Positions 7,479 through 31,377 of a DNA stretch of 64,000 bases are shown here, in pieces. Under the pieces are notes generated by a model that had not been told where the DNA came from, did not search any database, and saw only the letters and a program-made list of their open reading frames with translations. The stretch comes from a virus (taxonomy: Duplodnaviria > Caudoviricetes): the IMG/VR virus record IMGVR_UViG_3300012979_000004, positions 1 to 64,000 of that record. One strand, given 5' to 3'. A program made the translations under genes and the position numbers. Within the stretch, counting starts at the first letter, position 1; every line of letters starts with the position of its first letter.

Positions 7479-7635
7479 ACTTTTGATTATTAATCATTCT
7501 GGACGCTACCAAGTTAGCCACCACGTTTGATACAAAATCCTAAGTATCGTCATGTTTTGCTTCGTGTCGTAAATACGATAATATTTCTTTAAGCATCGCA
7601 TTGTTTTCGCGAGCTAATCTTAGTAGTTCGTCCAT
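7471..7635 (-). CDS. Small hypothetical protein (54 aa, one TAG)
   Basis: MDELLRLARENNAMLKEILSYL... fills the gap between portal and the next gene. Confidence 0.5.
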
Positions 7636-7642
7636 AAATTAA

Positions 7643-10129
7643 TTATTTTTTAGATTCACCTGAAACACGGTTCCTTAGTGCAGTTTTAGCTTTAAGCTCC
7701 TCTCGTTTATATGCAGCGTCGTCTTTCTGCTTCTGCAATTCTGTTTCATGCTTCATACGATCACGCTCAAGCTACATCTTCTTATCTTCTATCTCGCGTT
7801 TCTGTCTCTGTTCGTAACGTTTAATGTATGACTCTTCTGCTATCTTACGTTGAGCAGTAGCGTCCTTTGCTATTTCAATCGGATCTGGAATGCCGTTTCC
7901 GTCAGCGTCCTTTTCTTCAGAACCGCGATATGCACTAATTTCAGCAACTACAATTCTAGTCTGGTTATCTTGATCAATCTTATATCGTTCGAGATCCATC
8001 TTCGCTTCTTCTAACATGAGCTCTTGTTCACGCTGTTCGTTTTGCATTTGCTGTATTTGTACAGCCTGTTGCTGTTCAGCTTCTTGTTGAGCTTTTTGAG
8101 CTTGTTCTTGACGCTCCTGCATGTCTACTAATTTCTGTTTAAGCAGATTGAGGTTGTCTGTAGTAAGAACCTCTGCAGCTTCTAATAACGAAGCACCGTT
8201 TTGCATAGCAGGTTGAATGAGTTGTTTGAGGGCTTGAATATTCTCAAGATCTCTAGATGTATCGCTTACAAACACATCCATATCTTCGTAATAGAATTTA
8301 GGATCTATATCCAAGAACGCTCTTTCGCCTGTGTCGAATACGTAAGACAGCTTCTGTTTACCAGTCTCTTCCCAAGCACCTTTTGCTGTATTCAACAACA
8401 TATTTAACGCTCTACGTTTGCATTGCGCGTGTACCCAGAACAAAGGTTCTGTGATGTGAGAAGACTGTAACACAGATCTTTCCACATTTCCAACAAGCTC
8501 ACTTGTACTCACCTGTCCTTGTCGTTGTTCTGTAATACCCGATATAGTTCCAGCAAGATGTTCAATCTTGTCCATCAACTGTATGTATTCAGCAATAACG
8601 TTGCCCATAGTCAAGTCTGCCTAACCAAATTGGTTGAATGCGGCAGCTCTGGTTCCATTCGGATCCGATGGGTTTCCTTCGTATGGATTCACAAAGTTAA
8701 CTCCTACCGAAGATAAATAGTGTAACCACCTCTCTGGTGTAATTCCCATTGATTTTGGAATTTGTGTAATGTCCATAGTTATAACCTTACCTTTATCTCT
8801 GGCTATAGCTAATTCCAATCTGTACCATAGTACTATGTACATGTACTGGAGAGGTTTTAGAATGCTAACCAACGAACGTGGTTTACTATTCGTATTGCTG
8901 TATATTGCCCCTGTGTACGGTAACTTTTGTGAATTTGGATTGTCTATAGATACGTGTTGGTACTCTACTGGCTGTATACCGAAATATAAATCTGTACCTG
9001 CGCGATATCCTTCCCAAACTTCTACAACCCAATCGATGTCTATAGAAAGTTCGGTTCCTGTCTTTTGATAACCTTCGTCTTCTATTGTCACCTGAGGTTG
9101 ACCGGACTCGTCTAGATATGTTATGTAATATATCTTTTTAAACGATTTCCAGCAGCAATGCCACACGTTTATACAACCTCTTGTGTTTTGATCATATATC
9201 GGATTGTCGTATATACGCATGCTGATGTGGTTAAAATCGTCAACCGGACCTTTGTCTCCGAGGTCGTTCGAGGGTCTTCCCGTCATCATCTCCTCAAGCT
9301 TGTTCAAATCTTTTTCTGTAAGCTTGTCGTAATACCGATCGTATATCTCTGTGTATGGCATTCTCATTCTACGACAACACCAAGCACCGTCTTCTATAAA
9401 TTCCAAATCTGGGCTTTTGTCGTATGAAAAATACAATGGGTTCACACGTTCCAAATAAGGTTCGCTGTTCATTACACCAACGTAATAAATTTCGGTTCCT
9501 GATATAAGTGCGTCCTTCCAACCTTTTATAAACTCGTTGTCAAAACTGAGTTTTTCTCTGAGGTATGTTAGAGTATGGTATGCTGTATTTTCAATTACGT
9601 CCTTGTAGCTTTTGTTCAAATACTTGCCGATTTCTTCAGGAGGCATGATCTCGCCGCTTTGAATCTGTTGTTGATACGCAGCAGCCTCTTCTTCACTCAT
9701 TCTGGCAGTAATGGAAGCCATGATGTAGCTCAACAACATCTCTTTACCTTTTTCCTATATTTCAGATACAGATTCTTGAGAAGTTCTTACGACTTTAAAA
9801 TTTAAAGGACGTTTTGTTTCCTCGCCTATCAATAGATCTATCTTAGGTCGAATGATGTTGAAATCCTATGGCGTTGCCGGAAATCCATCCTCGACTTTAA
9901 ATGGATTTGTTATCTTTTTAAAATCCTTTTCGTCGAATATACTATTATATAAATTATAACAGGTCTACATCTCTCCATATCTAGTTTTCGTTTGCCCACC
10001 AGATACCACGTTGCCTTCGCCTATTATGTAATTTACACAATCGTGTTGCCACTTTTCATTTTTCTTTTTTAGCGAAAGTTTCTGTCGAGGGAATGAAGAG
10101 TTGTATAAATTGTCTTCTATTCGTATCAT
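7643..10129 (-). CDS. Portal protein (828 aa, TAG=Gln)
   Basis: Fragments 8621-9739 and 7772-8614 are in one frame from ATG 10129 to TAA 7643, directly downstream of TerL. Confidence 0.85.
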
Positions 10130-16578: not shown

Positions 16579-16766
16579 ATATGTTTGCAGTACATATAGA
16601 CTGTATATCAGCCCTCGTATCGAGGGCGGGACTTGGTTTATCCCAACCAAGCGGATTAAGTGCAGCTTTACGCAGCAGATTACCAGTAACATCTCCAGTC
16701 TGCACTACGTCTTATGTGTATGTATCTAGAATATACTTCCAGCGGCATAAGAATCAGCTGTATTTG

Positions 16767-16844
16767 TGCGAAGAATGGGATTTGAACCCATAGACACCAA
16801 TGTTTGTAACATGGTTGCTGAATACCAATATCAGCTTTCTTCGC
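16767..16844 (-). tRNA. Atypical tRNA, anticodon ACA
   Basis: GCGAAGA/TCTTCGC acceptor stem, GCTGA/TCAGC D stem, anticodon loop TTACAAA, T arm ATGGG-TTCAAAT-CCCAT. Confidence 0.65.
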
Positions 16845-23272: not shown

Positions 23273-23317
23273 CAACGAGGTCCTGGGTAAGACTAAAAAC
23301 TGCCCAACTTTCAAATA

Positions 23318-23374
23318 AACTGTCGGGTTCACCAAGACCCCTGATGAGTCGCTGAAAATTGCGACGAAACAGTT
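23318..23374 (+). ncRNA. Type III hammerhead ribozyme 1 (predicted cleavage after GUC, 23324)
   Basis: AACTG-TC / GGGTT..GACCC / CTGATGA / GTCGC..GCGAC / GAAA-CAGTT. Confidence 0.9.
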
Positions 23375-23875
23375 AACATCCGTAGCCAATTATCAAGAAT
23401 TGTCTGTAGTAATAACAGTCAAGTTGTCGGTAAGATAAACTGAAACCGTCTAATTAATCCACTGATAAATAGGTGGACCATTTAAAAACCTCTAAAGAAT
23501 AAACCACTATATTCGTACTATACCCGTTTGTTAGTGGTTTATGTATGCACAAATTCATTATCATTATTATGTCGTACGGTGGTGTAAGTTTGGTCGCTTA
23601 TGCCACTTCTGAGTGACATTAAATTGTACACACATGCAGCAGATCCTAAATTAGCTGCATTGAGGGGCTAAAACAGTTTAGACCGACATTGAAAGACCAA
23701 TGTAAACTGTTGATGCCTGTGTGTACTAGTCTCGATTGCATGACGAAAAAATGAACTTGGTTAGTCATTAGGAGCAATCTAAATGCAATGCTGCGATGTT
23801 GGTCTATACTCAACAACAGCAAAGAAAACACCAAAGGAACGGTTTATGACCGTTCCTATTGGTTGTTTGATACAA

Positions 23876-28954: not shown

Positions 28955-28957
28955 TTT

Positions 28958-29291
28958 AGCGACAGGAAACTATATCTAAAGCGCAGAATCTTAGAATCAG
29001 TCGTTTGTAATGTAAGATAAATCGCATCAGAGGGCATGGGGCCGAGTATCCGAATTTTCTTACAGATAGTTGAATCAACAACATCGGCATCGAGTCACTG
29101 AACCATATGTCGAGGATGTATACTCTCTGATCTCACGGAGTATAAACTATGAGACCATTTGATCAAACCAAAGAAAATATGAGAATCTTAGAATCTGTTT
29201 TGAAATAAATTGAAAAATATTAGATTCAAAACACATGTTTTCATCAAAAATGCGAATACACCTATTACAGAATCTTAGAATCAGCTAATAG
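28958..29291 (+). repeat. Array of hairpins with repeated loop AGAATCTTAGAATC
   Basis: Exact copies at 28985, 29182 and 29269 and a variant GAGTCACTGAACC at 29092, each inside a different stem. Confidence 0.7.
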
Positions 29292-29442
29292 TCACTGTAT
29301 TATTAACAATAGCCAAAAACGCTCTGTATTGCGATATATTTGACGGTATGAAGTAGCTACCACACCAGATAAGAAATCACCACACAGAGCCAAATAAAGG
29401 CTATTTAGAGCATAATCTGATCAATTATGTTTCTATCGAAGT

Positions 29443-29650
29443 TCTAGCTTGTGTGAAATAAACTATTCGGACGAGGGGGCAGTACCCTCGCGGTCCACAA
29501 AGAAAGAATGTAAGATTTTGGGCCGCAAATAGTGTTTGACGGGTAGTGGATATAAACACGTTAAGCTATTACATAAATCTAACTGGCAATTCTTATATTG
29601 CTGACTACACTAAGCTGGCAGCTTAATGGTTCTCTAATTGAGATTTAAGT
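29443..29650 (+). ncRNA. ssrA: Circularly permuted (two-piece) tmRNA; outer ends approximate
   Basis: Acceptor piece first (GAGGG-GGCAGTA-CCCTC-GCGGTCC-A, ends 29497), 22-nt spacer, then coding piece GGGCCGC (29520) giving G3-U70. Tag GGC..GCA GCT TAA at 29585-29626. Confidence 0.88.
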
Positions 29651-29676
29651 CACGTGCTAACTACGAAAGTGAGGAC

Positions 29677-29735
29677 GGAGATAACTAAGTTTAACGTTAA
29701 CTGGAGTTTTGGCGGTTCGAATCCGCCAATCTCCG
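29677..29735 (+). ncRNA. D-armless tRNA-like element directly after the tmRNA
   Basis: GGAGAT...TGGCGG-TTCGAAT-CCGCCA-ATCTCC-G. Confidence 0.6.
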
Positions 29736-29746
29736 CATCTACAAAA

Positions 29747-30217
29747 ATGAAAAAAGGTGGATATAAAGAAATGCTAAGAGATCGCTGTCCAAGGACAGTA
29801 TCTGCAGCACTAATATGGTGTAAAGCAAAACAAAGATGGATAGACCATGTCTACGACAACTTTGTAAGATTCTTAATGTACGATAAAAAAGCTAAAGATC
29901 AACAAGTTAGAACCTTGTTAGGACTTAGTAAAAATAATCGTAACATGGAATTCAACAGCACCATAAATTGGGAAGATCTTTCAAAAGAAGAAAAAGAATA
30001 CTGGGAATCTGTTTCAAAATGGGTAAAATGGTTCGAAAAAAATATAATAATTATTGCAGAATTATACACCCACTATTACATAACAGTTCATGGTAAATTC
30101 AGCAATGATTTTGTAAAAAACCGTATAATAAATACGGCATTTACAAACATTGATAAAAGTCTTCATGAAAAGCTTTATAAATATACAATAGAACACATTA
30201 AAAAATATTATGTATAG
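29747..30217 (+). CDS. Hypothetical protein; TAG stop
   Basis: Likely start MKKGGYKEML after the RNA element. Confidence 0.7.
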   Translation: MKKGGYKEMLRDRCPRTVSAALIWCKAKQRWIDHVYDNFVRFLMYDKKAKDQQVRTLLGLSKNNRNMEFNSTINWEDLSKEEKEYWESVSKWVKWFEKNIIIIAELYTHYYITVHGKFSNDFVKNRIINTAFTNIDKSLHEKLYKYTIEHIKKYYV

Positions 30218-30672: not shown

Positions 30673-30757
30673 ACCAAGATGTCGGAATTGGTATACGAGA
30701 CAGACTTAAACTCTGTTGGTCATATCGACCGTGTGGGTTCGAGTCCCATTCTTGGTA
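30673..30757 (+). tRNA. tRNA-Leu(UAA)
   Basis: Cloverleaf with long variable arm; anticodon loop CT-TAA-AC. Confidence 0.9.
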
Positions 30758-30816
30758 CAGCGGCTAACATCCGTTACGCGAGTGACACGCTAATAACTGT
30801 TAAAAACTTAAAGCTT

Positions 30817-31377
30817 ATGAAAAACCCTAAAATTACTCCAGAAGAAATTAAGGTTATCAAAGCTGCACAAAATGGAAGCATACCAGCTTTCAATTGTATA
30901 TTTAAAAGATACAAATCGTTTGTAAGCAATATATTATATGGCTACATTAAAGATAAAGATGAAGCTGATGATATAACAAATATTGTATTTTTAAAAGTAT
31001 ACGATAAACTACAGAAATTCACAGCCTATGACTCTTTCGGAGGATGGTTGAGAATTATAGCTAATAATACAGCTGTAGATTATTTACGTAGAACAAAACA
31101 CACACCTATTGTGATTGATAATGTAGATGTCCGACTAACATCTTCAAGATCAATTAGTTCAGATGAAAACGACATTGTCAACCGTTTAACATATGAACAG
31201 ATACTCAAAGAGTTTAACGCCCTCTCTGAGCAAGCACAAAAAGTATGTGAATTGTTTTATATAGATAATATGACATCTGAAAAAATTAGCGAAGTGTTGC
31301 AAATACCAATAGGTACAGTGAAATCACATTTATCTAGGTCACGCAACAAATTACGTAAACAATTTAAAACAATTTAA
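30817..31377 (+). CDS. ECF-type sigma-70 factor
   Basis: Region 2 DEADDITNIVFLKVY...FGGWLRIIANNTAVDYLR; region 4 EKISEVLQIPIGTVKSHLSR. Confidence 0.9.
   Translation: MKNPKITPEEIKVIKAAQNGSIPAFNCIFKRYKSFVSNILYGYIKDKDEADDITNIVFLKVYDKLQKFTAYDSFGGWLRIIANNTAVDYLRRTKHTPIVIDNVDVRLTSSRSISSDENDIVNRLTYEQILKEFNALSEQAQKVCELFYIDNMTSEKISEVLQIPIGTVKSHLSRSRNKLRKQFKTI

Follow-up and report, generated by a model that had tools for sequence, protein, structure and literature searches.

A predicted circularly permuted tmRNA gene shared by Suoliviridae crAss-like phages

The closest described systems are the two-piece tmRNAs. In the alphaproteobacterial form (Caulobacter type, RF01849; Keiler et al. 2000, cited in PMC9004378), a permuted gene order goes with a GGCRGUA-type T-loop and the D-loop sequence AAAUAG, three features that recur in the gene described here. 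Phages carry such genes as well. Marine T4-like phages, such as the OM43 phage Melnitz and the pelagimyophages, have two-piece tmRNA genes, and the two-piece type accounts for 53 of the 133 unique phage tmRNAs in one survey (PMC9004378). A tmRNA database of 2025 holds 79 phage sequences, and also 48 permuted hits in Bacteroidota genomes (PMC11915505). Among the crAss-like phages, the most abundant viruses of the mammalian gut (PMC7886860), six Oafivirinae genomes bear the RefSeq label "tmRNA, SsrA": cr130_1, cr131_1, cr272_1, cr273_1, cr7_1 and cr124_1. The Suoliviridae, formerly the Delta group, are the largest crAss-like group of the human gut (PMC7886860). The main crAss-like genomics paper makes no mention of tmRNA, and no description of a Suoliviridae tmRNA family was found in our literature searches. 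An earlier note on the DNA studied here, made from its letters, had suggested that such a case was undescribed; this claim of novelty was too strong, since six sister phages are labelled in RefSeq and phage two-piece tmRNAs have been published (PMC9004378).

The window, that is, the whole stretch of 64,000 nucleotides that was analysed, is the first 64 kb of an IMG/VR record representing a complete crAss-like phage genome of 99,927 bp with direct terminal repeats. The source phage is a member of the family Suoliviridae (Crassvirales); its DNA polymerase shares 64-74% identity with the polymerases of Suoliviridae/Oafivirinae crAss-like phages and with that of Dulem virus 42, which is unclassified. 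Cattle-gut metagenomes from about ten studies contain the locus again, and none of the runs listed as carrying it is an RNA run. The locus very probably comprises a functional, circularly permuted ssrA gene, the parts of which are as follows.

29411 to 29429, plus strand: conserved hairpin, some 15 nt ahead of helix 2, with the stem CATAAT/ATTATG and the loop CTGATCA
29445 to 29497, plus strand: core of the acceptor piece (helix 2 3' strands, GAC, T arm, acceptor 3' strand, A73)
29445 to 29450, 29451 to 29454 and 29462 to 29469, plus strand: helix 2 3' strands TAGCTT, GTGT and ACTATTCG
29473 to 29489, plus strand: T arm GAGGG-GGCAGTA-CCCTC (5 bp, 7-nt loop)
29490 to 29496, plus strand: acceptor 3' strand GCGGTCC, followed by the discriminator A73 at 29497
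29498 to 29519, plus strand: spacer of 22 nt, with predicted removal when the precursor is cut into two pieces
29520 to 29568, plus strand: 5' part of the coding piece (acceptor 5' strand, D-loop analogue, helix 2 5' strands)
29520 to 29526, plus strand: acceptor 5' strand GGGCCGC (7 pairs including G3-U70)
29527 to 29539, plus strand: D-loop analogue AAATAGTGTTTGA, with no D stem and no anticodon arm
29540 to 29547, 29556 to 29559 and 29563 to 29568, plus strand: helix 2 5' strands CGGGTAGT, ACAC and AAGCTA
29585 to 29626, plus strand: tag reading frame (resume codon GGC, 12 sense codons and TAA at 29624 to 29626), encoding (A)GNSYIADYTKLAA
29627 to 29675, plus strand: 3' tail of the coding piece, with a small conserved hairpin CGTG...CTACG and then AAAGTG
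29676 to 29737, plus strand: tRNA-like minihelix, acceptor stem CGGAGAT/ATCTCCG, T arm GGCGG-TTCGAAT-CCGCC, no usable anticodon arm
29747 to 30217, plus strand: first protein gene downstream of the tmRNA, 156 aa, no family match

The order is permuted, the tRNA-like 3' half (29445-29497) being followed by the spacer, the 5' half from 29520 and the tag at 29585-29626. The T arm, the two acceptor strands and their separation by 22 nt all lie where the earlier note had placed them, and its reading of a 7-bp acceptor stem with G3-U70 (GGGCCGC/GCGGTCC) and of a resume context AACT|GGC at 29585, opening a tag that ends in TAA, holds as well. Helix 2 pairs across the pieces in three segments of 8, 4 and 6 bp, ACTATTCG/CGGGTAGT, GTGT/ACAC and TAGCTT/AAGCTA, as had been proposed; RNAcofold, run without constraints on the two predicted pieces, returns all these helices at -61.8 kcal/mol. 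CCA is not encoded after A73, where the next bases are CA. In tmRNA mode, ARAGORN calls a permuted tmRNA at 29408-29717 with the tag GNSYIADYTKLAA, which together with the gene order bears out the view of a compact permuted tmRNA in a gut phage. The Rfam model RF04321 (tmRNA_permuted) matches with 58.1 bits against a cut-off of 47 (E = 1.1e-8 for the 64-kb window and 4e-12 for the genome). The standard one-piece model RF00023 has no match in the window at the gathering threshold. The alphaproteobacterial model RF01849 stays just below its cut-off (49.3 against 50 bits) and covers only model positions 70-183 of 355, the tRNA-like domain. Neither of the two Rfam families named in the earlier note, tmRNA and alpha_tmRNA, thus reaches its threshold, whereas the permuted model does.

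Certain aspects of the structure speak against activity. Since only 16 A/U-rich nucleotides separate helix 2 from the resume codon, no candidate for pseudoknot 1 was found there by inspection and MFE folding; this gap measures 17-28 nt in most relatives and about 38 nt in the Bohxovirus group. The first tag codons are predicted by RNAalifold to pair as a hairpin, GGCAAT/ATTGCT, with one compensatory pair. The lack of room for pseudoknot 1 and a resume codon within a hairpin, as far as both predictions go, would be unusual for an active tmRNA. The hairpin in the 3' tail has a C-G outer pair here, G-C in the cr7/Bohxovirus types and A-U in the cr130/cr131 types, a tentative comparison made by eye. 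Upstream of helix 2, the stem of the 29411-29429 hairpin differs between relatives and is still complementary (GTTCTGA/TCAGAAC, ATTCTG/CAGAAT, TTCTAT/ATAGAA, GAGGAG/CTCCTC), while the loop keeps a GATC core. This hairpin may extend the acceptor piece at its 5' end, or serve as a signal for processing or transcription. A pairing of its CTGATCA loop with the 3' tail was sought by eye, with unconvincing results. A scan for sigma-70-type promoters and terminators, the consensus of which is not that of Bacteroidota, gave nothing on the plus strand, and no glutamine riboswitch was found in or around the gene at Rfam thresholds.

The gene belongs to a family. At the syntenic site, RF04321 matches are present in all five nearest records (35-71 bits), and ARAGORN calls a permuted tmRNA in four of these as well as in cr7_1 and cr124_1. 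The record missed by the program, Bohxovirus PV686213.1, is unannotated at the locus and has the top RF04321 score (70.6 bits). Homologues occupy the syntenic site in 7 of 7 Oafivirinae records checked, further copies occur in cr10_1 (Boorivirinae) and cr52_1 (Loutivirinae), and a family-specific pattern retrieves 23 further IMG/VR contigs. Most Suoliviridae checked thus keep the gene at a common genomic place. It is absent from three related Suoliviridae, cr4_1, cr113_1 and cr6_1, and is therefore dispensable, which counts against the functional reading. The six RefSeq copies and the source copy represent one gene family at one place, with the permuted order, the helix 2 layout, the tag core and the downstream tRNA-like element in common. 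The source copy differs from them in its very short 22-nt spacer, its LAA tag end and a GGCAGTA/TAG instead of a TTCGA/TGG combination of T- and D-loop, and it has diverged from them beyond the reach of blastn, which found nothing similar to the window locus in 50,697 phage records. Nor did IMG/VR contain an exact copy of a 29-mer from the tRNA-like domain. When the family pattern was run against bacterial and archaeal genomes, every one of the matches listed (at least 120) was due to chance and failed the family filter.

For the analysis of covariation, 28 sequences were parsed by sequence anchors, yielding 16 distinct helix sets. Pairing served in part to choose the acceptor and T stems, while segments 2a and 2b of helix 2 were taken at fixed offsets from the anchors. 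Pairs were counted on this parse instead of a covariance model because a whole-gene MAFFT alignment had put the acceptor 5' strand and the outer segment of helix 2 in the wrong place. In the 16 distinct sequences, 99% of the 384 pair cells are paired. Sliding the partners lowers this to 41-55%, and exchanging strands from one sequence to another lowers it to 71% (at most 80% in 1000 trials). Compensatory, double-sided changes occur in 17 of the 24 core base pairs; covariation across Crassvirales homologues, which the earlier note had suggested as a check, thus supports the gene, with acceptor pairing and tag frame conserved. G1-C72, G2-C71, G3-U70 and A73 are invariant, while acceptor pairs 4-7 covary. 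The inner helix 2 segment exists in 13 different sequences, all of them paired, and the outer one in versions such as TAGCTT/AAGCTA, ACGC/GCGT, TAGCAT/GTGCTA, GAAATC/GATTTC and TGAACC/GGTTCA, all complementary as judged by eye. For four short-spacer members, RNAalifold gives core helices identical to the parsed ones. The spacer itself ranges from 15 to 230 nt in the relatives and has no conserved sequence.

Variation between strains follows the same lines. Contigs from four cattle-gut metagenome runs differ from the window at nine substitutions. Three of these are in the spacer, which also bears a 67-nt insertion, and four are in the downstream tRNA-like element, where 29713 C>T keeps a G-U pair. 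The changes 29477 G>A and 29485 C>T, seen in two runs, compensate each other in the loop-closing pair of the T stem. No difference falls in the acceptor stem, in helix 2, in the loops or in the tag in any of the four runs.

These data bear on the question of whether the locus is a non-functional relic, either a host ssrA fragment left at an attachment site or a pseudogene in decay. Temperate phages commonly carry host ssrA fragments (PMC9004378), and the gene is missing from some relatives, as could be expected of a relic. However, the locus has its two halves and a complete tag frame, base pairs often change in a compensatory way, no identity element varies, and strain variation avoids the structured parts or compensates there. 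Moreover, the host tmRNA genes are one-piece, so a fragment could not yield the permuted arrangement. We consider a relic highly improbable and retain the reading of a functional gene.

The T-loop sets the source copy apart from most of its family. While 14 of the 16 distinct members combine a T-loop TTCGANN with a D-loop TGG, the source copy and one other, L113 (a 56.6-kb IMG/VR contig, at about 7540-7760), have GGCAG together with a D-loop TAG; in L113 the T-loop reads GGCAGAG. The alteration of the T-loop thus co-varies with a GG-to-AG change in the D-loop. The nearest sisters of L113, L019 and L109, have TTCGAGT and TGG, with identical helix 2 strands and near-identical tags. As these sisters keep the canonical pair, the elbow switched on at least two occasions. 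A search with a stricter pattern of the altered loop yielded L113 and, apart from it, a single chance match in GC-rich coding DNA (L443). The alpha-type T-loop described in the earlier note is therefore a property of the source copy, not a trait of the family, and it is uninformative on ancestry. Its departure from canonical TTCGA could also be held against activity, as could the VA end of most family tags. Recombination with an alpha-type gene is a less likely alternative source of this loop.

As judged from their sequences, the family members fit none of the alpha, beta and cyano subtypes of permuted tmRNA. The relatives score best, yet weakly, on the beta model RF01850 (27-49 bits against a cut-off of 84), while the best subtype model of the source copy is the alpha one. 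Apart from the ordinary T-loops and this weak beta preference of its relatives, the source gene is distinguished from the Caulobacter type by an unencoded CCA, resumption at GGC instead of GCN and the lack of an ANDN...ALAA tag. Seventy-two alpha-type viral copies, by comparison, encode CCA, resume at GCN and have ANDN...ALAA tags. The marine T4-like phages share with the source phage a permuted tmRNA gene in a lytic phage without a phage SmpB. Their genes, however, are alpha-type and match a plausible alphaproteobacterial host lineage, whereas the predicted hosts of the source phage, Bacteroidota, have a one-piece tmRNA.

With this one-piece tmRNA (RF00023), the tRNA-like domain has several features in common. 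Some family members match its acceptor stem GGGGCTG/CAGCTCC exactly and its D-loop TTTGGTTTTGAC almost exactly, and CCA is unencoded in both groups. The resume context TAACT|GGC is likewise common to Bacteroidota tmRNA and the family, and the 10-mer TCTAACT|GGC of the window equals that of one Bacteroidia genome. Unlike the Bacteroidota RNA, the phage family has a permuted order, about half the total size, no evident pseudoknots and another tag body. The similarities in acceptor stem, D-loop, resume context and CCA point to a separate permutation with a tRNA-like domain and resume context that look Bacteroidota-derived; the comparison comprised four Bacteroidota one-piece tmRNAs and the 72 viral copies, and its ungapped identities are crude and give a direction only. 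It could be imagined, at somewhat less than even chance, that this is a fourth bacterial-type two-piece origin, made in the phage lineage from a Bacteroidota one-piece ssrA gene, in which the pseudoknots were stripped, a tRNA-like end marker was gained and the elbow switched at least twice, each time independently, from canonical TTCGA/GG to GGCAG/AG, a combination that elsewhere characterises Alphaproteobacteria. If there was indeed a separate origin with a repeated switch, the two elbow designs would be interchangeable for SmpB, AlaRS and the ribosome.

The end marker in this scheme is the minihelix downstream of the coding piece, with a predicted fold of -22.9 kcal/mol (z = -2.8). Of 28 distinct sequences scanned downstream of the tmRNA, 23 contain an element of this type, in which the acceptor stem has 7 bp and the T arm 5 bp; of the five loci without it in the scan, at least two end too soon. 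In the relatives the element is 41-80 nt long, has a covarying acceptor stem and lies 4-12 nt ahead of the next ATG. It corresponds to an annotated tRNA-Cys in cr7_1, scores 48 bits as a tRNA in cr10_1 and has no anticodon arm in cr130_1. It may be a decayed tRNA that was retained as a cutting signal. We predict that it acts as punctuation for RNase P and RNase Z, setting the 3' end of the coding piece and freeing the downstream mRNA. Punctuation elements such as mitochondrial tRNAs and mascRNA sit where RNase P and RNase Z would cut. By analogy, the minihelix resembles mitochondrial tRNA punctuation and the mascRNA at the MALAT1 3' end as an acceptor/T-arm mimic between two RNA products; by contrast, its cutting is a prediction, and in some relatives the element is still near a real tRNA. 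The long spacers of cr130_1 (L008) and cr10_1 (L251) hold an extra hairpin resembling a T arm, for example AGAGG-TTCGACT-CCTCT in cr10_1, so that tandem tRNA-like cutting signals are possible. Other structured RNAs are encountered in these genomes. RAGATH-20 (119.6 bits) in cr52_1 (L252, 2116-2218) and RAGATH-9 (97 bits) in cr10_1 (L251, 2934-3112) lie upstream of the tmRNA gene, at distances of a few hundred to about 1,200 nt, and the window itself has a type III hammerhead ribozyme at 23317-23375 (49.7 bits against an Rfam cut-off of 48.5).

As to its surroundings, the tmRNA gene closes a gene-free stretch of about 790 nt, in whose upstream part (28955-29410) the motif GAATCTTAGAATC occurs three times, near 28986, 29183 and 29270. 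The protein of 156 aa encoded downstream has no relatives in IMG/VR. Next come a second unknown gene, tRNA-Leu(TAA) and a gene for a sigma factor, an order that relatives share; cr7_1 and cr124_1 keep the order of tmRNA, two unknown genes and sigma factor. The tRNA-Leu(TAA) gene (30673-30758) directly precedes the sigma-factor gene (30793-31377; PHROG 1740, E = 1e-25).

The phage reads TAG as an amino acid. With TAG as sense, giant leftward reading frames of 1,949 and more than 2,800 codons are open that are otherwise closed, and in the whole genome the content of ORFs above 300 aa rises 3.3-fold. By ARAGORN, no tRNA with a CTA anticodon exists in the whole recoded genome; 8 of 10 relatives scanned have one. 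The sole odd tRNA of the source phage, called as Cys(ACA) at 16766-16844 on the minus strand, is unlike the suppressors of the relatives. The minihelix was considered as the missing amber suppressor and rejected, as it lacks a CUA within a proper anticodon loop, and the element of cr130_1 is without any anticodon arm. In Bohxovirus PV686213.1, the ORFs are short even with TAG or TGA as sense. It could further be thought that the tmRNA is an accessory to the reassignment, rescuing ribosomes that stall at TAG or that run through TAG-ended host or early messages. The recoding of the source phage agrees with such a role, and so do the tag frames, none of which ends in TAG: in the 19 distinct versions, the stop is TAA (13) or TGA (6). 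Across 11 genomes, however, the presence of the tmRNA does not track recoding. Phage cr10_1 uses the standard code and has the gene, while cr4_1, cr113_1 and cr6_1 are TAG-recoded and lack it. A link between tmRNA and TAG recoding is thus not supported across these genomes, and we regard an accessory role as improbable.

The preferred reading of a functional tmRNA is favoured by the tag itself. The frame is retained in 19 distinct versions, with synonymous codon changes at N, V, D, Y, T and A, and shares the core ..[IV][VAT]DYT... This conservation of tag frame, resume context and stop in the presence of synonymous substitutions argues that the tag is translated and under selection. Most tags of the family end in VA, and that of the source copy ends in LAA; an AA end is usual for protease recognition of tmRNA tags. 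The native Bacteroides tag, GETNYALAA, is strongly degradative, and the family tags (...DYT.VA) differ from it. The Bacteroidota-type tag that the earlier note had seen in this gene is thus Bacteroidota-like in its Gly start and, for the source copy, in its LAA end, but not in its body. In view of this difference from GETNYALAA, a different fate of the tagged proteins or a competition with the host system is possible, and the phage-specific tag may direct proteins to a fate other than that given by the host tag.

A competition of this kind would make the RNA a decoy or modifier of host trans-translation, competing for SmpB, AlaRS or stalled ribosomes and giving either no tagging or a non-degrading tag, and thereby letting truncated phage products or ribosomes evade the host system. 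No SmpB gene was found in the source phage genome, so the phage must share that of its host, and both the missing pseudoknot 1 and the tags unlike GETNYALAA are in line with such a role. There is a precedent in mycobacteriophage DS6A, whose CDS-less tmRNA is reported to inhibit host tmRNA (PMC11915505). Contrary to a decoy, on the other hand, the family keeps its tag frame, resume context and stop codon while codons change synonymously, and the source tag has the LAA end of ordinary degradation tags. A decoy therefore seems unlikely, if somewhat less so than the role in TAG reassignment.

For a functional permuted ssrA gene, the following route can be proposed. A single precursor would be transcribed rightward and be cut by host RNase P 5' of G29520 and 5' of the downstream minihelix. 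A 3' tRNA-maturation activity would trim after A29497 (or C29498), and the CCA-adding enzyme would complete the end. CA also follows the discriminator in the tRNA-Met and tRNA-Leu genes of the phage, which fits a shared 3' maturation route. The 22-nt spacer would be discarded, leaving two RNAs: the acceptor piece, some 55-90 nt in length, and the coding piece, with about 156 nt. Sequence, covariation and folding show the pieces to be held together by the 7-bp acceptor stem and the three-part helix 2. From established tmRNA biology, host AlaRS would charge the RNA via G3-U70 and A73, host SmpB and EF-Tu would deliver it to ribosomes stalled on broken mRNA, and translation would resume at GGC, adding AGNSYIADYTKLAA. 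The most likely benefit is an extra capacity for ribosome rescue during host mRNA degradation and bulk phage mRNA synthesis.

By every sequence test, the source copy is an ordinary member of its family, and the gene is already labelled publicly. In no paper found, however, are the family's misfit to the known subtypes, its Bacteroidota-like domain and resume context, the lack of room for pseudoknot 1, the minihelix or the joint switch of T- and D-loop described, and these family-level features merit a proper description. Most Suoliviridae are predicted to possess a ribosome-rescue RNA of their own, a property that is undiscussed in the papers searched. With about 210-250 nt in two pieces and no evident pseudoknots, the family represents a natural minimal tmRNA, which could reveal the essentials of trans-translation. 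The repeated co-switch of T-loop and D-loop is a natural test of the tmRNA elbow, and, given the phage-specific tag, one may ask whether tagged proteins are redirected by phages to another fate.
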